Shown here in pieces: positions 8,672 through 30,769 of a stretch of 38,749 nucleotides of DNA; within the stretch, counting starts at the first letter, position 1, and the number at the start of each line of letters is the position of its first letter. Position numbers and translations under genes: made by a program. Below the pieces are notes generated by a model. It did not search any database, was not told the origin of the DNA, and saw nothing but the letters and a program-made list of their open reading frames with translations. This stretch comes from a virus (Duplodnaviria; Heunggongvirae; Uroviricota; Caudoviricetes): IMG/VR virus record IMGVR_UViG_2579778884_000012. One strand, written 5' to 3'.

Positions 8672-9781
8672 TTAATCTGAGTCCATTTTCCCAAACTCTG
8701 TCAGGCCGAAAACGGAGCTACCAGAAACATGAGCTTGTAAGCCCGCTTCCTGCATGTCACTTAATTCAACTTCTTGGCTATCCTCTAATCCGATAGAGAA
8801 CATGGGATAGGCCCAGTTCCAATTCGGATCAGGAACCAAACTATTATTCTCTATCTTGAAAAAGCTGACCATGAGATGATGCCTTCCCTGTATCGCCTCT
8901 TCATCATTGATGTTGACCAGTACACCAAAGTGCTTGTAGCCGGCTTGTCCATTCTCGAACATTTTTATCTTGGTGCCGTTTCTGAACATCCAAAAAGAAT
9001 GATTTCCAGTGGAATCAGCGACCTGCAAGTTATCTTCGTCAATTTCCCAATTAAGATATTGTTTGATATCAGACTTTGGTTTGAGTTTTTCGTCATTACT
9101 AAACCATTGTATTGCCGGAAGTGGAAGGTGAAGACCTTCCGGCTGGGGAGGCTGACCTGCAGCAATGGAATGCATGATCTCTGTCATTGATGGAAGCCCC
9201 ATCAAATGCCATACATCATGGATATCCTTTTTAAGTATAAGAAGCCCTTTGGATACACCATCCGCGTAAGTTGACTTTAAGCGGACTAGTATGTCCTTGT
9301 TACCATCTTTGTCGAGGTCTTCAATGTTTACTGAAGAAGCCACAACCTCGTCGTCCCCTGCGTCTGGGATGATTGCCCAATACCCAATATCGTAGAATCC
9401 AGGTCTGCCAACCACCTTATCTATCAAACTCTGTCCAGAGGGCTCGAAGACCATCAGGAAACGGCTAAGGGCACCATTTGTGCTCACAGTTCTTCCGTAG
9501 ACTACAACGGAGTTTGAGGTGCTTAGATCGAGAGACTCGCTAGCCACTGAGTCAAACGCCACTGAGTCCAAATGTGTGGCAAGCTGCTGCTGGATGCACT
9601 CCCGAGCCATTTCAACTAATTTTTCGCGAACATCAGCAGATCGTATTGGCTGTGAAGTGAAATGGAAAAGCCCTACTGTAGCCGCTATGCCTATTATTCC
9701 CGAAATAACGGTACTTAGAACCTGCTCCTTTACCACTTTCACAACTTTCATCAATAGCTTCTTCAACTTCACTTCAGGCAC
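8672..9781 (-). CDS. Hypothetical membrane-anchored protein (accessory cargo at the Z/fun position), up to 369 aa
   Basis: Long AT-rich ORF between FI and G. One N-terminal hydrophobic helix (VLSTVISGIIGIAATVGLFHF) followed by about 320 aa of soluble domain with no motif I recognise. The track start is a GTG directly after an in-frame TAG; the first ATG is 10 codons in (9751), so the true start is uncertain. Confidence 0.6.
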   Translation of the reverse strand: MPEVKLKKLLMKVVKVVKEQVLSTVISGIIGIAATVGLFHFTSQPIRSADVREKLVEMARECIQQQLATHLDSVAFDSVASESLDLSTSNSVVVYGRTVSTNGALSRFLMVFEPSGQSLIDKVVGRPGFYDIGYWAIIPDAGDDEVVASSVNIEDLDKDGNKDILVRLKSTYADGVSKGLLILKKDIHDVWHLMGLPSMTEIMHSIAAGQPPQPEGLHLPLPAIQWFSNDEKLKPKSDIKQYLNWEIDEDNLQVADSTGNHSFWMFRNGTKIKMFENGQAGYKHFGVLVNINDEEAIQGRHHLMVSFFKIENNSLVPDPNWNWAYPMFSIGLEDSQEVELSDMQEAGLQAHVSGSSVFGLTEFGKMDSD

Positions 9782-9994
9782 CTAAATACTATTAAACTTG
9801 TCATGGGAAAATCCGATTATTATTGTAGAGAACAACAAAAACTGGCCTCGATTTTAGAGTTTTTCCAGTATCTATTTTCCGACTCGTTCGGCGGTAATCC
9901 ACCGTTATATTCATGAGGCCGGGGTGCACTATAATATTCAACTATATACTCTGTTTGTAGTGGCACATTAAATTTGGTGACAGATATGCATCAC

Positions 9995-10018
9995 GTCCGC
10001 TCCTAGCACAGAGCGGAC
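9995..10018 (-). other. Inverted repeat GTCCGCTC-N8-GAGCGGAC downstream of G
   Basis: 8-bp perfect stems seen directly; no clear T-run. Could be the terminator of the V-G operon or a binding site. Confidence 0.3.
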
Positions 10019-10079
10019 AGTCAGATTAGGTTTTACTCTGTGCCATAGATGAGTAATCTCACACCAGAGCTAATACGAT

Positions 10080-10658
10080 TTATTGCGGCATTTCAGGCCA
10101 TTCTATATCCGGAGCATTTTCCGGCTGAACGCGATTAAGTAGCACACGGTATTTTTTCCAGTGTGTCAGGCTTAACTTTTCTTCCTCGGTAGCCATATCT
10201 AAATCGACAGCATCCTGCAGCATGGCAATGATTTCACCTGCATATGCAATCTGCTCTTTCTTCTGAGACTCAGCCGCTCTGACAAGTGCATCACGCTCTG
10301 CATTCTCATCATTCACCCACGCATTTCCGTTCCATTTCTGATAATCCCCCTCCGGGGAAATGGCTGTCACGTCTGGAGGTAATGCGCCAAGTTCAGAAAT
10401 ATAAATGGCTGCTCCCGTTTTCGTTTCGTAGACAGTCTTTCCGCGATGATCTTCCATCAACTCCCATTTCATTTCATCTGCATTGAAAACGGCTGCATAA
10501 CCAGCAGGAATATCAGGTGGTGCAATATCTGTACTGTTTGCAGGCAGGCCAGTATACGGCGGAATATATGCATCACTTTCGCCAATAAACTCATTGGTTC
10601 CATCAAGTAAATTGAAAACGCGGATAGTTTGTGCTTCTGCACTCATTCTGAAAGCCAT
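10080..10658 (-). CDS. G: Tail fiber assembly chaperone gpG (Tfa-like), 192 aa
   Basis: Immediately downstream of the H tail fiber with its start overlapping the H stop; size and position match P2 gpG / lambda Tfa-type chaperones. Confidence 0.8.
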
Positions 10659-13276
10659 TATGCAAGCCTCACAATATAGTTAAATGCGATGTTTTTGACG
10701 GTGTTTTCGGTATTGCCAGTAGCATTTACGGTAATGGAATGCCCGTGTGAGCCAATAGCAACAGTGTGTGAATGTGCACCAATACCAACAGTATGGTTAT
10801 GTGCTCCAATGTCGACTGTATGTGCATGATTGCCTGATGAACTTGTAGTCGTAGCACCTTTATCACTTCGCGGAACACCATAATCTGCACCGCCTGATTG
10901 CACGCTCACAGCAAAACCGACGGTATGTGTATGATTGCCAGAAGTATTGGTTGATTTTGTGCCGTGGTTAAACGTACTGACTGTTTTTGTCCCGTAATCA
11001 AATGAACTGGTCGTTTTCGTTCCTAAGTCCGTATTTGACGCACTGGCGCTGTGAGTATGCGATTTAATCCCGTCCTGTTCCTGTGACAATACGGCACGCC
11101 CACTGGCGGGTTTGCCCTTGATTGTCCAGCCGCGCATATCTGGAATAACACCAGAAGGATAGGCAATAGCCAGTTTCGGATATGCTGCCTTATCAAACGT
11201 CTGTCCCTGCATGATTGCATAGCCTGCAGGCGGTGTATCTGATGGCCATGGCAGCGGAACACCTGGCGGAAATACTTCAATATTTGCCGAGCCGTCAAAT
11301 TTCACGCCGTTAATTGTCCTTGCCGTTTTCAGCTTTGTTGCTGTAGCCGCATTGCCGGACAGTTCGCCTGAAAGACCACCGCTGAATGTCTGTTTCGCCG
11401 CCCATGTCTGAGCTTCGTCGATAATTGGCACACGTCTTGTCGTGATCGTGCGGCTTCCCGGATTTCCTGAAATACGCACCATAAAAAAGCGGTAATTCGC
11501 TTTACTTACAGTGCTGCGCCATACATGCATTGAGCGCCCCGTACCGGAATCATCACTCGGACCAACTGCGATGTTTATCAGGTTGCCATCAATGACGCCC
11601 CAGTCCATACCGTCGGGAATGTTGGTCATGTTATCAAGCCGAACGGTTATCAGACTGCCCGGCACAAAGTCGTGGGTCTGCCAGTCCAGGCTGGTGAGCT
11701 TTGCCACTGCACCGCCGATACCCAGATTCAGGGGAAGTGAATACGAGGTGTAGACTTCCCGCCATTCGCTCCACGAGCTGCCGGTATAGACGCGCTCAAA
11801 CGTGCGACCTTTAAGGGTTGCACCTGTTCCGGCAGTTGTATAACGCTGCCATACGTTAACACCATCAAAGCGCCTCAACACTTCCAGAATACCGAGGACT
11901 GTCACGCCGTTTCCGTCCAGTATTGGACCGTTGGTCGCTTTACCTGTAACGCTGTAAATACCTGGTGAAGTCACATCATTCAAATCCCCGTCGTAATAAC
12001 GACTCTCTGACTGATGACCAACTCTTAACCACGGTTCCCACTGCGGATTTGATGCATCCCAGCTTGCCGCAAGGCAGCGGACGTACATATTTCCACGGCG
12101 AGTGGTATAACGTTGCGTTCTTCCATAATTCCCGCCTTCGAGGATCTCAAGCGTCCCCTGAGCAAAGCCGCCTTCCTCTGGATAATTGCGTTCATATGAA
12201 GCTATAGCCGAGCTACTGTTACGCCATAAACCAAGATGCTCGGCGGCTCCAAGCGTATTCAGGTCTATAGTCGTACTCAAAGGGCGGGTCGCTGATTGAG
12301 TGTGACGCCATACGCCCCACGGACCATCAGTGCCATTCCACTTATTGGCGAGTTTACGCATGTATACATTGCCGTCTCTTGTGGTAAAGCGTTGCGTACC
12401 TGCAAAATTGCCGGCAGCAAAAACCTCAAGCACACCGACAGCATTATCTTCCGGGAAATTTTTCTCCAGTGTTGCGTTGGTGGATGTTGCTTTAGACCAG
12501 ATACCTGAATAAGCCTTAACAGGACCAAACGTATTCAGATCAGCATCAACCGGCATTTCGCCATTGTTTTTCATAAACGTCAGGCTGGTAACGCCAACAT
12601 TGTCCAGAAAAGCTGATTTATCCTGGATATCTGCACCGTTCTGATTTTTCGCCAGACGTGAATTTGCGTTGTCATTCGCAGCCTTGACCGCTTTTGGCGT
12701 TGCCGCCAGTGACTCACTGGTGCTGTTTGTTGCACTGCTTAACTGAGTAAAACCTTTCTCTGTCAGCGTGGCGTCAGGATGGCGGCGGGACTGCTCATGC
12801 TCTGCGATTTTGTCATCGACGTAATCCTGCGTCGCCATCACTGTGCTGGCATCAATACTCAGCTCAACGGACGCCACGTTACTGAGAATAATAACCATGC
12901 GGCAGGTCTGCGCACGTCCGGAGCCTTCAGCCAGTTCTGGCTTATAGCTTTCTGCCATGTTGGATACCGCAATCAGTGTTCCGGCATCATCATACAGACC
13001 AAGCTCACGCATCCAGAAGCCGCCCACTTCTGGCGGAACAACCAGTTCAGCCACGATATAGTTTTTATTCTTGTTATCCACACTGACTTTATTCAGAGCG
13101 TGACGCCAGACTTCATGCACCAGTTTCGTCTGACCGGCATCCGGCACCGGCAATTGGCCATTACCGTCACCCACAGCCATTGCAGACAGGTTTACTTTTT
13201 TCCCGCCGGGAACAGTAGCGGCTGCCAGCTTCGCGGCTCCGGCAGTAGTGATAACGGTTTTAAATTTCGTGCTCAT
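10658..13276 (-). CDS. H: Tail fiber protein gpH, 872 aa, mosaic C-terminal half
   Basis: N-terminus [24 protein letters not shown]... recognised as the conserved gpH N-terminal domain. Middle holds three tandem ~55-aa modules; C-terminus holds His-x-His repeats ([37 protein letters not shown]). Confidence 0.88.
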
Positions 13277-15785: not shown

Positions 15786-16562
15786 ATGGTCAGCTATAAT
15801 GTGACTAATGTGTGGGAGCTAATCGTTTTGTATCTTTTGGTCTTTGCAGTATTAGCATTTTTTAGCTTTGGTAAAAGTAACCTTATGAGGCTTATTGCAC
15901 ATTATTTCAAATTTGGATATTCAGACAAAAAATTAAAAAGACTGGACCGCGAGTGGCGCGACATTCAACTATTTAAAATACTTAACGGAATCAATGTATC
16001 AGGCATCGAAGATGTGAGAATGATACAGCAGGGGCTGATTGATGGAAAACTAAAAACATCGGATTTTTTCCTTACTCGCTTCTGGGGAGACATAACAGAA
16101 CCGCCATGCATCACAAAAACAATGAGTGCAGTCCTGGCCGGAATTCTTTATATTATCTTCGCATGTTGCATACACAACGAGCAATCTGCCATAGTAGAGG
16201 ATGCCATAGCCATACCATATAAAAATATGATGTACCATGTTTATAATGACAAGGTTCTTTTGTTCTCCGACAATAAAACAGATAAGTTCTATAAAGCTTT
16301 TAGCATTGCCGATTGCAAGAGACTGCAGAACACTTTTGTAACAGACACACTTCCTGCAATCGCCTGCAATAAGCTCTTACAGCTAAACGAGGAGGACTCC
16401 GAATGGTTAAGTCAGGAGATTAAAGATAATAACAGCCACAGAAAAACATTATTAATAATATCCCTAATCTATTTCATTTCAGGTGCGTATTTTCATGAAA
16501 GGAGATCACTCAATAACTTCCATCGAGATCGGGTAATAACATTTGAACAGATCGCTGAATAA
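15786..16562 (+). CDS. Hypothetical integral membrane protein (accessory gene at the orf30 position), 258 aa as it stands
   Basis: AT-rich ORF on the strand opposite the late genes, with a good RBS (AAGGAGAGCGTA ATG). Three predicted hydrophobic helices (about residues 12-29, 114-130, 230-245). Its last seven codons and stop lie inside the inferred IS terminal repeat. Confidence 0.65.
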   Translation: MVSYNVTNVWELIVLYLLVFAVLAFFSFGKSNLMRLIAHYFKFGYSDKKLKRLDREWRDIQLFKILNGINVSGIEDVRMIQQGLIDGKLKTSDFFLTRFWGDITEPPCITKTMSAVLAGILYIIFACCIHNEQSAIVEDAIAIPYKNMMYHVYNDKVLLFSDNKTDKFYKAFSIADCKRLQNTFVTDTLPAIACNKLLQLNEEDSEWLSQEIKDNNSHRKTLLIISLIYFISGAYFHERRSLNNFHRDRVITFEQIAE

Positions 16563-16676: not shown

Positions 16677-18218
16677 ATGCCAACAGTTCCAATTTCTATG
16701 AGAAAACTTAAAGAAATTCTTAGGCTTAAATACGGTGTTGGACTCAGCCATCGACAAATTGGTCGTAGTCTTGCAATCTCCCCTTCCGTTGTATCCAGAT
16801 ATGCTAATCGGGCGGCTCAACTTGGCATAAAGCAGTGGCCCTTACCTACAGGATGGGATGATACAAAACTAAAACATGCGTTCCTTCAGACCCAGGTTAA
16901 GATGAAGAAGCACTCTCTGCCTGACTGGGCTACAGTACACCGGGAACTGCGTAATAAATGCGTGACGCTGCAGCTACTCTGGGAAGAATACTGTGAGCGT
17001 AATCCAGGCGGTTTTTACAGCTATAACCATTACTGCCGGATGTACCGTGAATGGCTCAAAACCACTTCACCATCAATGCGTCAGGTACATAAAGCTGGCG
17101 AAAAACTTTTCGTTGATTACTGTGGACCTACCGTTGGCGTTACCGACCCTGAGACCGGAGAAATAAGAACTGCTCAGGTCATCGTAGCTGTTCTCGGGGC
17201 ATCAAGTTACACATGGGCAGAGGCCACCTGGTCTCAGCAGCTTGAAGACTGGGTGATGAGTCATGTTCGCTGCTTCCAGTGGTTGGGTGGCGTTCCTGAA
17301 CTTGTTGTTCCGGACAATCTGAAAAGCGCCACATCCAGGGCATGTAAGTATGATCCTGACGTTAACCCTACCTACCAGCAGATGCTTGAGCATTATAATG
17401 TCGCAGTTTTGCCTGCGCGGCCACGTAAACCGAAAGATAAAGCCAAAGCTGAAGTTGGCGTTCAGGTTGTTGAACGCTGGATCATGGCCCGAATCAGGCA
17501 TGAGATCTTCTACAGCCTTGCATCGCTTAATCAGCGCATTCGGGAGTTGCTGGAAAGACTGAATAACAAAATAATGCAGAAGTTGGGTTATTCACGTGCA
17601 GAACTCTTCATCCAGCTTGATAAACCCGCACTGAAGCCTCTTCCTGAAGCCAGTTACAGTTACACCCTGGTGAAGAAAGTCAGAGTTCATGCCGATTACC
17701 ACGTGGAAATCGACAAACATTACTACTCGGTTCCATGTTCGCTGTTAGGCCAGCAACTGGAAGCATGGATCTCCGGAGAACTGGTAAGACTCTTCAATCA
17801 GGGGCAGGAGGTTGCTGTGCACCCGCGCAAGCGTACTTATGGCTACAGTACCCGCAACGAGCACATGCCTGAAGCTCATCGACAGCATGCCACCTGGACG
17901 CCAGAGCGTCTTCTGGAATGGGCGGGGCACATAGGCAGTGAAACTCATAGTTATGTGCTTCATATACTGAACTCTCGTCCACATCCGGAACAAAGCTATC
18001 GCTTCTGCCTTGGACTCCTGAACCTTCATAAAAAATACAGTAAAGCCAGACTTAATGCAGCATGTGCAAGAGCTCTGAAAACAAAGGTATGGCGTCTGTC
18101 AGGTATTAAATCGATCCTGGAAAAAGGTCTGGATAAACAACCTGTTCAGGATCCAAAACCAGATCTGTTATCCACGATGGAACACGAAAACGTACGCGGC
18201 AGTGAGTATTACCACTGA
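16677..18218 (+). CDS. istA: IS21-family transposase IstA, 513 aa
   Basis: N-terminal helix-turn-helix (LSHRQIGRSLAISPSVVSRY), central DDE-type integrase-like region, followed 12 bp later by istB; typical IS21 layout. Confidence 0.85.
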   Translation: MPTVPISMRKLKEILRLKYGVGLSHRQIGRSLAISPSVVSRYANRAAQLGIKQWPLPTGWDDTKLKHAFLQTQVKMKKHSLPDWATVHRELRNKCVTLQLLWEEYCERNPGGFYSYNHYCRMYREWLKTTSPSMRQVHKAGEKLFVDYCGPTVGVTDPETGEIRTAQVIVAVLGASSYTWAEATWSQQLEDWVMSHVRCFQWLGGVPELVVPDNLKSATSRACKYDPDVNPTYQQMLEHYNVAVLPARPRKPKDKAKAEVGVQVVERWIMARIRHEIFYSLASLNQRIRELLERLNNKIMQKLGYSRAELFIQLDKPALKPLPEASYSYTLVKKVRVHADYHVEIDKHYYSVPCSLLGQQLEAWISGELVRLFNQGQEVAVHPRKRTYGYSTRNEHMPEAHRQHATWTPERLLEWAGHIGSETHSYVLHILNSRPHPEQSYRFCLGLLNLHKKYSKARLNAACARALKTKVWRLSGIKSILEKGLDKQPVQDPKPDLLSTMEHENVRGSEYYH

Positions 18219-18229
18219 TACGGGATCCA

Positions 18230-18979
18230 ATGATGAATCATCTTTACGAACAACTGACCGCACTTAAACTCACCGGCTTCCGTGATGCGCTTAAAAAGCA
18301 ACTTGCTCAACCGGGCACATACCAGGAGCTGGGCTTCGAAGAACGCCTGTCATTACTGACAGCAGAAGAACTAACCTGCCGTGAAAACAGGAAGGCAGAG
18401 CGTCTGATCAAACATGCACGGTTCAGACTTAATGCTGAGTTATCAAAGCTGGATTATCGTAACAATAGAGGGCTGGACAGGGCCCTCATCCGTTCACTCA
18501 GTCAGGGAAACTGGTTAACCCTGAAACAAAATATTTTACTGACCGGGGCCACCGGCAGCGGTAAAACGTTCCTGGCATGTGCACTTGGTCATAATGCCTG
18601 CCGACAGGGATACAAGGTCTACTATTATCGCCTTAAAGCGCTGATGGAACAGTGCTATCAGGGGCATGCTGATGGAAGATACAGCAAACTTTTGACCAGG
18701 CTGAATAATAGCGATCTGCTGCTTCTGGATGACTGGGGGCTGGAACCTCTCTCATCAGAACAGCGTAGCGACCTGCTGGAAATAGTGGATCTGATGTACC
18801 AACGAGGCTCAATCATCGTAGTGAGCCAGTTGCCGGTGGAAAACTGGTACAAAATGATCGGAGACTCCACACATGCGGATGCCATCCTAGATCGACTGGT
18901 TCATGGCAGTATCAAGATCGAACTTAAAGGAGAATCAATGCGGAAAATACAATCTCCGTTGACCGAAGGAGATCAGTGA
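18230..18979 (+). CDS. istB: IS21-family ATP-binding helper protein IstB, 249 aa
   Basis: Walker A motif GATGSGKT and Walker B LLLLDDWG; DnaC-like AAA+ fold typical of IstB. Confidence 0.88.
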   Translation: MMNHLYEQLTALKLTGFRDALKKQLAQPGTYQELGFEERLSLLTAEELTCRENRKAERLIKHARFRLNAELSKLDYRNNRGLDRALIRSLSQGNWLTLKQNILLTGATGSGKTFLACALGHNACRQGYKVYYYRLKALMEQCYQGHADGRYSKLLTRLNNSDLLLLDDWGLEPLSSEQRSDLLEIVDLMYQRGSIIVVSQLPVENWYKMIGDSTHADAILDRLVHGSIKIELKGESMRKIQSPLTEGDQ

Positions 18980-28827: not shown

Positions 28828-29769
28828 ATGCAAGGTGAAGTTGACGAACAGCAACCAAATGAGATTATTTCGGAGTTTGGATACTATCCAGTAGAAGTTA
28901 ACATTGAGACTGAACAATTTTCTTTGCGTACTTTACCCGGTCTTATTGAGAACGTGGAACGTATTAACAATGATAAAAACGTTGTTAATGGTTGGATATA
29001 CCCTGGGAATCGAAAGGTATATAACCTTAATGGTGACACATGCACAATGCCTTATAGTTACCGAGTATTCGGCATGCCCAAAACGCACACACTAAAATTA
29101 AAAAACACATCCTCGTTAGAAACTCTCAACTTTGTTGTGTGGTGCCTCTCTTTTTTCAAGGGTATAAGATTGACAACCACTGACGCTGGTTTTCTTGATG
29201 CAACCACTATCAAGCCCACTAAGTTAACCGACTTTATTCTCGTTGGATGCTCTGAAAAAGAAGTAATAGAGCTAGCACTTAACTATATAAAAGACAAACA
29301 AAAAGATGATCGCTCCATTAAAAGAATAGCTGCGGTGATACACTCCCTATTCCTGTCACATAACCCACTATACCTTTCCTTTGAGAAATTCCAGTATCTT
29401 TATATGGCTCTTGATTGCTGTTTTGCTATAGCATGGGATGAAAGGGATAAAGTCATTAAAGAGAAAAAACCATCTCATCAAAATAGAGTATATTGGATGT
29501 GCGAAAATTACGGTGTAAAAATCCCGTCATGGGCAACAGATGAATGTAATGTTTCAGTTATACGCAATGATAATTTTCATGAAGCCATTTTTAATGGGCA
29601 ACCGCTTGGTTTCTCTAGTATCAATGATTGTCAATATGGTAGCGATATATTGCTACAAATGCAGGCTCTGGTATGTCGTCTACTAGCGGCAATACTCTCT
29701 GTAAATGATCGTAAATATATCGCATCTACAATCAGCTCGATAGAGTACCATTCATTAAAATTAACTTAA
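28828..29769 (+). CDS. Hypothetical protein with C-terminal HEPN-like R-x4-H motif (accessory cargo at the old/tin position), 313 aa
   Basis: AT-rich ORF with RBS GGAGAAAGTT ATG. Residues 246-251 are R-N-D-N-F-H (CGC AAT GAT AAT TTT CAT, 29563..29580), the HEPN-type motif, about 60 residues from the C-terminus. Not P2 Old or Tin by size or sequence. Confidence 0.6.
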   Translation: MQGEVDEQQPNEIISEFGYYPVEVNIETEQFSLRTLPGLIENVERINNDKNVVNGWIYPGNRKVYNLNGDTCTMPYSYRVFGMPKTHTLKLKNTSSLETLNFVVWCLSFFKGIRLTTTDAGFLDATTIKPTKLTDFILVGCSEKEVIELALNYIKDKQKDDRSIKRIAAVIHSLFLSHNPLYLSFEKFQYLYMALDCCFAIAWDERDKVIKEKKPSHQNRVYWMCENYGVKIPSWATDECNVSVIRNDNFHEAIFNGQPLGFSSINDCQYGSDILLQMQALVCRLLAAILSVNDRKYIASTISSIEYHSLKLT

Positions 29770-30088: not shown

Positions 30089-30769
30089 CTACATCTTTAT
30101 TGCATATTTATTAAAAGACGCCCAGTTCAATAAAAAAACATTATTCATATACCATTCAATATAATTTTTATTTTTAGATTGACTGTCAAGTAGCACACAA
30201 ACATCAACCTGTTTATCAATCAATTTTGCAATATAAACCACAAACTCAACACTCGAATATCTCTTTGTGCCTAGCAAATATAATATTTCATCTGACAAAT
30301 AATTAGACTCATGTGAAAAGACATTATCATTTAACAAAATCAACCCGCCAATCGAGTCATTTAAATCCAAAACATCCTTTGTTGCATTTATTTGCTTATT
30401 AGCTTCCTTAACTATCTTTGTTTTAATATTTTCATAAGCAAAGTTCATTATATCATTTCTAAATCGCTTTGAGTCTGGGTGTCTTTTTATCAACTCTTCT
30501 AAATGAATAGCACCATGCCAGTTTTTTGCAAGCCAACTATCAGTTTTAACCAACTCATTCAGTTTATCATTGACATTCTTGACCCTGTCAGAAAAAAGAC
30601 TTTTCATCTCCAAAATTATCTTTTTATTATCAATAAGATAATCTGCCATCTTGCGATTCTGACCATCCTTCATCCGGAACTTATGATGAATATCATCAAT
30701 AGAAATCCCTTTTTCATGCTCAACAATGAATCTCTTAACATTGTTTTCTAATTCGCTGTATTGTTTCAT
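30089..30769 (-). CDS. Hypothetical protein (accessory cargo), 226 aa, probably co-transcribed with the upstream DUF2158-like gene
   Basis: AT-rich Lys/Asn-rich ORF; start 27 bp after the small upstream gene's stop, with a GGGGGA RBS; no motif I recognise. Confidence 0.6.
   Translation of the reverse strand: MKQYSELENNVKRFIVEHEKGISIDDIHHKFRMKDGQNRKMADYLIDNKKIILEMKSLFSDRVKNVNDKLNELVKTDSWLAKNWHGAIHLEELIKRHPDSKRFRNDIMNFAYENIKTKIVKEANKQINATKDVLDLNDSIGGLILLNDNVFSHESNYLSDEILYLLGTKRYSSVEFVVYIAKLIDKQVDVCVLLDSQSKNKNYIEWYMNNVFLLNWASFNKYAIKM

Follow-up and report, generated by a model that had tools for sequence, protein, structure and literature searches.

Our analysis showed that the tail fibre encoded on the minus strand at 10658..13276 of the window (the whole 38,749-nt stretch of Caudoviricetes DNA that was analysed, IMG/VR record IMGVR_UViG_2579778884_000012) is very probably put together from at least four modules that were exchanged horizontally and is the gpH equivalent of a P2-like prophage, a reading to which we give a probability of about 0.88. 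A first-pass annotation, made from the letters of the sequence, had already called this open reading frame at 872 aa (plus stop) and had estimated it to be some 200 residues longer than P2 gpH; both figures hold, the excess over P2 gpH (NP_046775, 669 aa) being 203 aa. The mosaic interpretation that it offered is supported, with two corrections, one concerning the repeat period and the cassette to which the repeats belong, the other concerning the homology of the tip. What the analysis establishes is the homologies, the limits of the domains, the breakpoints and the order of the genes; the trimer, the bound iron, the need for the chaperone and the receptor are predictions.

Genomic setting and distribution

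The genes around the fibre follow the P2 order, V-W-J-I-H-tfa-(cargo)-FI, with ORFs for gpV, gpW, gpJ and gpI upstream of H, and with tfa followed by the FI sheath gene downstream; the annotation of CP015085 shows the same V-W-J-I-H-tfa layout. Identical DNA (100%) is found in many E. coli genomes of the O25b:H4/ST131 type, where the product is labelled "phage tail protein" (WP_001599800.1, which means that RefSeq already has the fibre protein), and at least 80% of the H gene is present in 148 of 5,426 complete genomes. As a tail-fibre gene, H is intact and ordinary; it belongs to a P2-like (Peduovirus) prophage of E. coli strains of the ST131 type, which would be integrated beside yegQ, and the fibre would be its counterpart of gpH. 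A tRNA scan of the window found none, and PADLOC returned no credible match for the cargo ORFs. A Mu/P1-style invertible fibre segment was another candidate, which we rejected, as downstream of tfa there is no invertase-sized ORF and no alternative tip on the opposite strand.

The P2-type anchor

The first 151 residues form the P2-type baseplate-attachment domain Phage_tail_fib (PF12571/DUF3751; window 12824..13276, minus strand), with a Pfam match (E=2.3e-57) that spans the full model. This is followed by a Phage_fiber_2 shaft repeat (aa 170-211, 12644..12769, minus strand; Pfam E=5e-21), which is common to Mu gpS and matches residues 110-174 of the Mu tail fibre S (5yvq, 8ju3). The conserved N-terminus proposed by the first-pass annotation is thus confirmed, both by the domain and by 83% identity to P2 gpH over aa 1-207. 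Canonical P2 gpH aligns over these 207 residues only, and full-length colinearity is absent: the two fibres lie at the same place in the genome and are each followed by an assembly gene, but differ everywhere past aa 207, P2 being without the knob cassette, the collar and the HxH needle described below. At the DNA level the similarity to P2 stops at window position 12671, with the module common to canonical P2 reaching approximately aa 207. By inference from P2, this first module (aa 1-207), made of the N-terminal domain and the shaft repeat, would dock a fibre trimer on the gpJ/gpI baseplate wedge.

The knob cassette

The central region holds a four-domain cassette made up of knob A (aa 240-330, 12287..12559), knob B (aa 331-422, 12011..12286), knob C (aa 423-514, 11735..12010) and a final, beta-rich domain D (aa 515-625, 11402..11734), all on the minus strand. 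This region had been described earlier as three tandem copies of a module of ~55 aa. The three motifs on which that description was based do exist, at aa 289, 382 and 473, but they recur with a period of 91-93 aa (~92) and not ~55, and only A and B are strongly similar to one another (Smith-Waterman z=32; hhalign probability 99.8%, E=2e-27), C being a diverged third copy. In pairwise Smith-Waterman comparison knob C is marginal (z=4.4 and 1.7). Its membership is carried by hhalign profiles (A-C 85%, E=6.6e-6; B-C 69%, E=4.3e-5), by the invariant G, P, E, Q, T and W..W columns, which stay in register across all three knobs, and by the AF2 model, in which C has the same beta-strand pattern as A and B. 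Domain D, which the earlier reading missed, is unrelated to the knobs (hhalign 0.2%). It was modelled with a pLDDT of ~80 as part of a 436-aa model, the model of D alone reaching a pLDDT of 42 and being judged unusable; a phmmer search with D against PDB sequences gave chance-level matches only (E>1), and D could, though this is unlikely, have a fold that is new to fibres.

When the 436-aa AF2 model was searched with Foldseek, the best matches were the R2/R1 pyocin fibres (6cl6_A, E=6.1e-8; 6cl5_A, E=3.2e-7; probability 1.00), and the Pa193 fibre was also matched. Sequence identity to the pyocin fibres is 14-15%, and the TM-scores reach only 0.2-0.25, since the domains of a four-domain monomer model are arbitrarily oriented to one another. 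Foldseek matches to beta-propellers and lectins (Photorhabdus PHL/PLL, Nup133, DDB1) were discounted as generic repeated four-stranded sheets with TM<0.2. A profile built from knobs A, B and C and searched against the PDB gave as its top four 9b45_2 (1e-4), 6cl5_A (1.2e-3), 6ct8_A (2.4e-3) and 6cl6_A (9.4e-3), the same fibres as with the model, with weak but specific alignments running through the ..G.LEV..Q.YT..R..W..W motif. NCBIfam models found no match in gpH, Tfa or two cargo ORFs, NCBI's pyocin-knob model evidently being absent from the HMM set used, and a Pfam search at E<=10 with each knob and domain D singly gave nothing. On the combined evidence of sequence profiles and the structural model, knobs A-C belong to the pyocin-type knob domains.

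The cassette is not particular to this fibre. Many of its 1405 homologues are named "pyocin knob domain-containing protein" and their N-termini and tips are varied; it is present in L-413C GpH, in many Peduovirus H proteins, in phage-plasmid fibres and in a T-even gp37, that of phage JK23 (58% identity, 96% coverage), and in other phages the same cassette, 92-98% identical, carries quite different tips. As a second module (aa ~215-655), the three pyocin-type knobs and the fourth beta domain would form the beaded shaft of the fibre.

The junction and the gp37-type tip

Between the cassette and the tip lies a conserved linker motif (aa 626-676, 11251..11401, minus strand), which in homologues is found on both sides of the cassette and which here contains a recombination junction, as located by blastn breakpoints and the identity profile. 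Identity to the H genes of L-413C and the 'P2side7' type stops at aa 656 (window 11310), and identity to a lambdoid Stf gene, that of Chlobot, begins at aa 676 (window 11251), which maps the junction of knob cassette and tip to aa 656-676 (window 11310-11251), with sharp DNA breakpoints. Since the breakpoints are sharp and a gp37-type tip is accompanied by Tfa, while colinearity with P2 is confined to aa 1-207, the exchanged receptor-binding module suggested at first pass is the right reading. That annotation saw one exchange unit; there are at least four, namely the anchor, the knob cassette, the tip with tfa, and the head sub-segment within the tip.

The resemblance to T4 gp37-type tips noted earlier proved to be true homology to the crystallised tip, with aa 653-872 matching residues 16-242 of the 2XGF chain (phmmer E=1.2e-76) and showing 65% identity to gp37 residues 813-1026. 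A Collar domain (aa 672-719, 11120..11263, minus strand; Pfam PF07484, E=2.5e-10) aligns to 2XGF, and is followed by a needle, or stem (aa 738-850, 10727..11065, minus strand), in which four stretches of Phage_fiber repeats (PF03335) were detected. The His-x-His repeats reported for this end of the protein were found by motif scan at aa 740, 782, 817, 826, 835 and 844, five of the six in the form G-x-H-x-H-[TS]-[VI]; when the 220-aa tip was shuffled 100,000 times, six HxH motifs were reached only once, which marks the count as non-random. In alignment to T4, six of the seven T4 HxH positions are kept in register and one motif of the outgoing strand is missing. Tips of this type occur in 649 phage records from T-even, lambdoid and P2-like phages, and that of the present fibre is 95% identical to Chlobot Stf and 58% to HK629 Stf.

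Homology to the T4 gp37 tip (2XGF; residues 785-1026) takes in the collar, the HxH needle and the C-terminal strand, and the tip subdomain 932-959 is not alignable; in T4 the tip is borne on the gp34-37 assembly, whereas here it sits on a single-polypeptide P2-type fibre. The T4 needle has seven iron sites made by equivalent HxH motifs (PMC6957217). By homology with 2XGF, the third module (aa ~666-872), a receptor-binding tip of the T4 gp37/lambda Stf type, would have a chain that descends from the collar through an intertwined needle, reaches a small head and then turns back up. Each HxH is a predicted metal site, at which every chain would supply two histidines to the octahedral coordination of an Fe2+ ion lying on the threefold axis. 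Six metal ions are predicted per needle, compared with seven in T4, and the geometry of the needle may differ from T4's, one HxH site being missing.

The head segment and the chaperone

Nucleotide identity profiles delimit a hypervariable head of about 30-40 aa between HxH motifs (aa 785-816, 10829..10924, minus strand), which is the predicted receptor-contact tip and sits where residues 932-959 of T4 gp37 lie. Its nucleotide identity to Peduovirus P24A7b is 35-57%, with flanks at 88-100%, and to the lambdoid Chlobot Stf 98%. 'His box' recombination has been proposed for gp37. The head (aa ~785-816) would be a fourth module, a separately exchanged sub-module flanked by HxH motifs, the T4 counterpart of which contacts LPS and OmpC.

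The anatomy of the T4 tip and its LPS/OmpC contact residues have been described (PMC6957217); these residues (932-959), which set T4's specificity and do not define the family, are not conserved here, the inter-HxH segment being 41 aa long, against 57 in T4, and unalignable, and OmpC or LPS as receptor is therefore only an analogy. Known receptors are OmpC for Ur-lambda Stf and K-12 LPS for the P2 fibre (PMC11338833), and the range of hosts of P2-like fibres has been shown experimentally to be set by the C-terminal part (PMC5285337). By that analogy, an outer-membrane porin of the OmpC type and/or the LPS core is the most likely receptor, and the fibre would serve in reversible adsorption and in determining host range.

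Directly adjoining H is tfa, a tail fibre assembly chaperone gene of 192 aa (10080..10658, minus strand; Caudo_TAP E=2.8e-40), as the first-pass annotation had proposed. Its start overlaps the stop of H as TAATG, which indicates that the two genes are translationally coupled. The protein is 98% identical to the Tfa of P24A7b, 65% to a lambda-type Tfa (HK629) and 29% to the T4 chaperone gp38, the chaperone here being of the lambda Tfa type; P2 gpG is similar to it only over its C-terminal 99 aa. Like lambda Tfa and T4 gp38, the co-transferred Tfa may act as a chaperone when its fibre tip trimerises.

Alternative readings

The extra length and the three modules could have come from a recent tandem duplication in the H of this lineage, and not from exchange, given that the copies do stand in tandem with a regular 91-93 aa spacing, and that T4 host range is reported to widen through small duplications in gp37 (Tetart et al. 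1996). At the same time, A and B are only ~40% identical, C is scarcely detectable pairwise, and A, B, C and D occur in the same order in L-413C GpH, NC_070906, JK23 gp37 and plasmid-borne fibres. Such conservation of order among distant fibres means that the triplication is ancient and moves as one cassette, and a recent duplication is highly improbable; judged by sequence, the "triplication" is an old and widely common cassette, not a local one. A relic of a defective prophage, with no current role as a virion fibre, is also very unlikely. An IS21-family element (IstA/IstB) does lie in the late region of this prophage copy, between S and V, and in a sister genome the annotation places an IS3 remnant downstream of tfa, but the IS21-family element sits between ORFs and interrupts none, the sister prophage in CP015085 is without it, and both H and tfa are present undamaged, at full length and with coupled translation. 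Moreover, from ogr/D to the integrase the window still has late and early functions of the P2 type: Pfam/PHROG matches cover gpI, H and Tfa as well as the integrase and the replication gene, ORF sizes and order are as in the sister prophage, and the annotation of that prophage points the same way. Near-identical fibres are found in isolated, plaque-forming Peduoviruses.

Accepting exchange of modules, one may still ask which of them binds the host. The knob/D cassette could be the main receptor binder or an additional one, attaching to a lateral carbohydrate such as O-antigen/LPS in a two-site adhesin whose tip is secondary: polymorphisms between R pyocin subtypes cluster on the head (knob) and the foot, both proposed as LPS sites (PMC6363177), and apart from the head the cassette is the part most divergent from P24A7b (32-75%), as would be expected under diversifying selection. 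We consider this unlikely, since elsewhere the near-identical cassette is coupled to quite different tips, host-range determinants of P2-like phages, T4 and lambda have been placed in the C-terminal tip by experiment (PMC5285337, PMC6957217, PMC11338833), and no sugar-binding site was identified in the cassette. A two-tier adhesin, in which knobs and D bind a lateral carbohydrate and a shortened six-metal needle with a minimal head of ~30 aa binds a porin, is a distinctly unlikely arrangement; if true, cassette, tip and head would shuffle independently, and P2-like prophages in ST131 would have a host range that is combinatorial. The reading that we prefer remains a P2-type fibre of exchanged modules with its predicted host contact in the gp37-type tip.

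Precedents and related fibres

Fibre mosaics of this kind have already been described, and both P2-family mosaics and engineered chimeras in both directions are published. L-413C GpH, for example, was described earlier as a mosaic of several parts whose N-terminal 207 aa are P2-like (Garcia et al. 2008, in the summary given by PMC7460101), and natural fibres with a P2 anchor and a gp37/Stf tip parallel published synthetic chimeras (PMC9594776, PMC11338833). The present analysis has little import beyond annotation and brings no new biological principle; what it provides is the exact limits of the modules, in window coordinates, of a fibre that is frequent in E. coli of the ST131 type, with natural fusion points at aa ~207, at aa 656-676 and around the HxH-bracketed head (aa 785-816) that could be reused by engineers re-targeting P2/P4 or lambda particles.

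The fibre of Peduovirus P24A7b (NC_049390, HYP17_gp21, 874 aa) is colinear end to end with the present one, having likewise a P2 anchor, three knobs and D, and a gp37-type tip with six HxH motifs, followed by Tfa. Identity is 98-100% in the anchor and in the collar and needle flanks and 95-98% in the tip and tfa cassette, but 76% overall; the knob cassette is at 32-75% and the head (aa ~786-825) is another allele. The whole architecture was thus already present in an isolated phage, which had escaped the first-pass annotation.

Other relatives have parts of the fibre in common. Yersinia phage L-413C GpH (913 aa; 73% identity over aa 1-673) has the same 207-aa P2 module and knob/D cassette, as does the 'P2side7'-type Peduovirus fibre NC_070906 (919 aa), which is 94.5% identical over aa 1-673; the C-termini of both are P2-type tips (..YINGTWYNVAQV) with a P2 gpG-type chaperone, and lack the collar and HxH needle. 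On the other hand, the Stf proteins of Ur-lambda/HK629 and Chlobot have a tip of the same family on an entirely different N-terminal anchor and shaft. The Chlobot tip, head included, is 97-98% identical at the nucleotide level, but its Tfa is mostly another allele (50-67% nucleotide identity), and HK629 Stf differs in that its HxH motifs number eight and its head insert is much larger. Finally, the R1/R2 pyocin fibres (PA0620; 6CL6, 6CL5, 6CT8) have the P2-family N-terminal anchor and shaft knobs in common with the present fibre; they end distally in a lectin-fold foot and not in a gp37-type needle (PMC6363177), whereas the fibre analysed here carries three knobs and D ahead of its needle.

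The H gene and its P2-type setting

The tail-fibre gene H occupies 10658..13276 on the minus strand, exactly where the first-pass annotation had placed it, starts with ATG and encodes 872 aa. It sits within the P2-type late operon of the window, with gpV (217 aa), gpW (115 aa), gpJ (302 aa) and gpI (176 aa; Pfam Tail_P2_I, E=2e-55) upstream, and the Tfa-like neighbour also noted at that stage proves to be a tail-fibre assembly protein of 192 aa (Caudo_TAP, E=2.8e-40) encoded directly downstream, with the H stop and the tfa start overlapping as TAATG. The entire window is a P2-like prophage adjoining yegQ. CP015085, an E. coli O25b:H4 genome, is annotated with the same layout, and there the H protein is WP_001599800.1 (‘phage tail protein’); many ST131-type genomes carry a 100% identical H gene, and at least 80% of the gene is present in 148 of 5,426 complete E. 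coli genomes.

Canonical P2 gpH has 669 aa, so that H is 203 aa longer, close to the 200 residues first estimated. The N-terminus is conserved, as expected, with a Pfam Phage_tail_fib match (E=2e-57) that spans aa 1-151; Pfam also finds a single Phage_fiber_2 repeat at aa 170-211 and a Collar domain at aa 672-719. Full-length colinearity with P2 gpH, named beforehand as the finding that would speak against a mosaic, was not seen, since the BLASTP alignment is confined to aa 1-207 (83% identity) and P2 DNA similarity ends at window position 12671 (about aa 202).

Three knob domains and a fourth, unrelated domain

The middle of H had been described as three modules of about 55 aa. The motifs quoted for them are present, starting at aa 289, 382 and 473, but these starts give a period of 91-93 aa rather than 55, and the module count overlooked a fourth domain. 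Copies A (about aa 240-330) and B (331-422) are, as judged from sequence, unambiguously homologous, with a Smith-Waterman score of 180 against 26.7 +/- 4.8 for shuffles (z=32) and an hhalign result of 99.8% (E=2e-27). For copy C (423-514) pairwise comparison was marginal (z=4.4 and 1.7), and its place as a third copy is supported by profile-profile comparison (hhalign 85% and 69%, E=7e-6 and 4e-5), by G, P, E, Q, T and W..W columns that are invariant and in register in 16 sequences, and by an identical strand pattern in the AlphaFold2 model. Domain D (aa 515-625), which follows the knobs and is beta-rich, is by the same kind of comparison unrelated to them (hhalign 0.2%); it has no sequence match in PDB or Pfam, and its AlphaFold2 model, built alone, was unusable (pLDDT 42).

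The AlphaFold2 model of aa 225-660 (mean pLDDT 72, roughly 75-88 inside domains) has as its best PDB matches the R2/R1 pyocin fibres (6cl6_A, E=6e-8; 6cl5_A, E=3e-7; probability 1.0), together with the Pa193 myophage fibre. A sequence profile of A+B+C, run against 177,635 PDB sequences, placed the same fibres in its top four (9b45_2, 1e-4; 6cl5_A, 1.2e-3; 6ct8_A, 2.4e-3; 6cl6_A, 9e-3), aligned through a common ..G.LEV..Q.YT..R..W..W signature, and many close cassette homologues bear the NCBI name ‘pyocin knob domain-containing protein’.

The cassette of three knobs and D has 1405 homologues, among them L-413C GpH (73% identity over aa 1-673), the Peduovirus fibre of NC_070906 (94.5% over aa 1-673), the T-even gp37 of Shigella phage JK23 (58% identity) and plasmid-borne fibres. 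Because it is so widely present, with varied N-termini and tips, the ‘triplication’ is not an event within the H gene; the complete cassette is old and mobile.

A gp37-type tip with its own head

The gp37-type His-x-His tip proposed earlier holds up well: aa 653-872 match the crystallised receptor-binding tip of T4 gp37 (2XGF, E=1.2e-76). Chlobot, a lambdoid phage, has an Stf that is 95% identical to this region; for gp37 (residues 813-1026) the figure is 65%, and for the lambda-type Stf of HK629 it is 58%. H has six HxH motifs, at aa 740, 782, 817, 826, 835 and 844, a number reached in only 1 of 100,000 shuffles. T4 gp37 has seven and HK629 Stf eight; the six of H are in register with those of T4, the absent one being the T4 929-931 motif of the outgoing strand. 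Pfam run on the tip alone added four PF03335 ‘Phage tail fibre repeat’ units, and the tip family extends to 649 phage records from T-even, lambdoid, P2-like and other phages.

The needle of T4 gp37 holds along its length seven iron ions, coordinated by the seven motifs, and the residues that contact LPS and OmpC lie in the tip subdomain between motifs three and four (residues 932-959; PMC6957217). The counterpart of this subdomain in H, the head, is aa ~785-816, with 41 aa between the flanking motifs versus 57 in T4, and is not alignable to the T4 tip subdomain. H thus shares its fold family with T4, yet its specificity is not predictable from it.

Junctions of the exchanged modules

In blastn, similarity to L-413C and NC_070906-like (‘P2side7’-type) genes stops at aa 656 (window 11310), and similarity to Chlobot Stf begins at aa 676 (window 11251), which puts the crossover in or just after a conserved linker before the collar. 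P2-type DNA similarity does not return until the final ~25 codons of tfa, from which it continues past the gene (window 10103-9995), and these two boundaries define a tip and tfa cassette of about 1.2 kb, bearing out the suggestion of an exchanged receptor-binding module.

Against the Peduovirus P24A7b, the tip is 88-100% identical except at window 10920-10801 (aa ~786-825), where identity falls to 35-57%; Chlobot Stf is 97-98% identical over window 11160 to 10621, this divergent segment included, while most of tfa is only 50-67% identical to Chlobot. These profiles mark the HxH-bracketed head as a separately exchanged unit, which fits an old idea, reportedly due to Tetart et al., that recombination among gp37-type adhesins uses conserved ‘His boxes’ as its sites. 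The identities also make a clear case for a recent siphovirus-myovirus exchange of the tip between a Chlobot-like and a P2-type fibre, with a breakpoint just inside tfa. Chlobot Stf itself (L006, PP925838, 1298..5190) is a 1107-aa protein of a lambdoid siphovirus whose tip has 97-98% nucleotide identity to that of H, and the Chlobot Tfa allele differs from that of the prophage after the first codons.

Proposed mode of action and precedents

By homology throughout, the N-terminal domain would anchor a homotrimer to the baseplate and the knob cassette would form a beaded shaft, from which the chains would pass the collar, continue along the needle as far as the head and double back, stapled to one another by six axial His6 metal sites. 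Reversible receptor binding would fall to the head loops, and Tfa, co-inherited and translationally coupled, would help the tip trimerise. The receptor is likely to be an OmpC-type porin and/or the LPS core, by analogy with T4 gp37, which binds LPS and OmpC (PMC6957217), and Ur-lambda Stf, which binds OmpC (PMC11338833); in P2-like phages, host-range determinants have been located experimentally in the C-terminal region of the fibre (PMC5285337). A two-tier adhesin, in which the knob/D cassette would add lateral binding as a second module, seems to us improbable.

Each element of H belongs to a catalogued family, and the mosaic reading is correct but ordinary and already known. The isolated, ICTV-classified P24A7b has the complete architecture, with a colinear 874-aa fibre (76% identity) and a Tfa 98% identical to that of the prophage. 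As early as 2008, a description of L-413C GpH presented it as a mosaic of several parts, its P2 boundary falling at the same 207 aa (PMC7460101); P2 has been credited with ‘naturally formed fusions through horizontal transfer’ of parts of the fibre (PMC9594776), and P2:S16-gp37 (PMC9594776) and lambda-P2 Stf chimeras (PMC11338833) have been built.

Cargo genes and an IS21-family element elsewhere in the window

Between tfa and the FI sheath gene lies a 369-aa ORF (8672..9781, minus strand), at the position of the non-essential fun(Z) gene in P2, with low GC (~42-45% against 50-59% in neighbouring tail genes) and an N-terminal segment that appears hydrophobic. It hits PHROG 15038, of unknown function, at E=3e-259, has no match in Pfam, NCBIfam or PADLOC, and may be a so far uncharacterised gene for lysogenic conversion or anti-phage defence. 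The ~300-bp gap between it and tfa (9782..10079) corresponds in CP015085 to an annotated partial IS3-family transposase pseudogene, suggesting that this cargo gene came with, or next to, an IS.

On the strand opposite to the late genes, between gpV and gpS, is a 258-aa ORF (15786..16562, plus strand) of low GC (~37%) with several apparently hydrophobic segments, for which PHROG 2407 (unknown function) is a match and Pfam, NCBIfam and PADLOC gave none; CP015085 has a hypothetical gene of similar size and likewise opposite strand at this position. An IS21-family element (16677..18979, plus strand), encoding IstA (513 aa; rve and Mu-transpos_C_2 domains) and IstB (249 aa; IstB_IS21, E=2e-67), is inserted between this ORF and gpS in the late region. 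The sister prophage in CP015085 is without it, and the insertion might influence how this prophage copy is induced or transcribes its late genes.

Two further ORFs, of 313 aa (28828..29769, plus strand) and 226 aa (30089..30769, minus strand), lie between the portal and replication genes, at the site where P2 has its tin/old cargo. They hit PHROGs 5937 and 20483, of unknown function, and have no Pfam or PADLOC matches. At least 80% of this cargo is covered in 27 E. coli genomes; in the best 5 of the 27 it is 100% identical and annotated as hypothetical or DUF2158. CP015085 carries other genes at this site, one annotated ‘ComEC/Rec2 family’.
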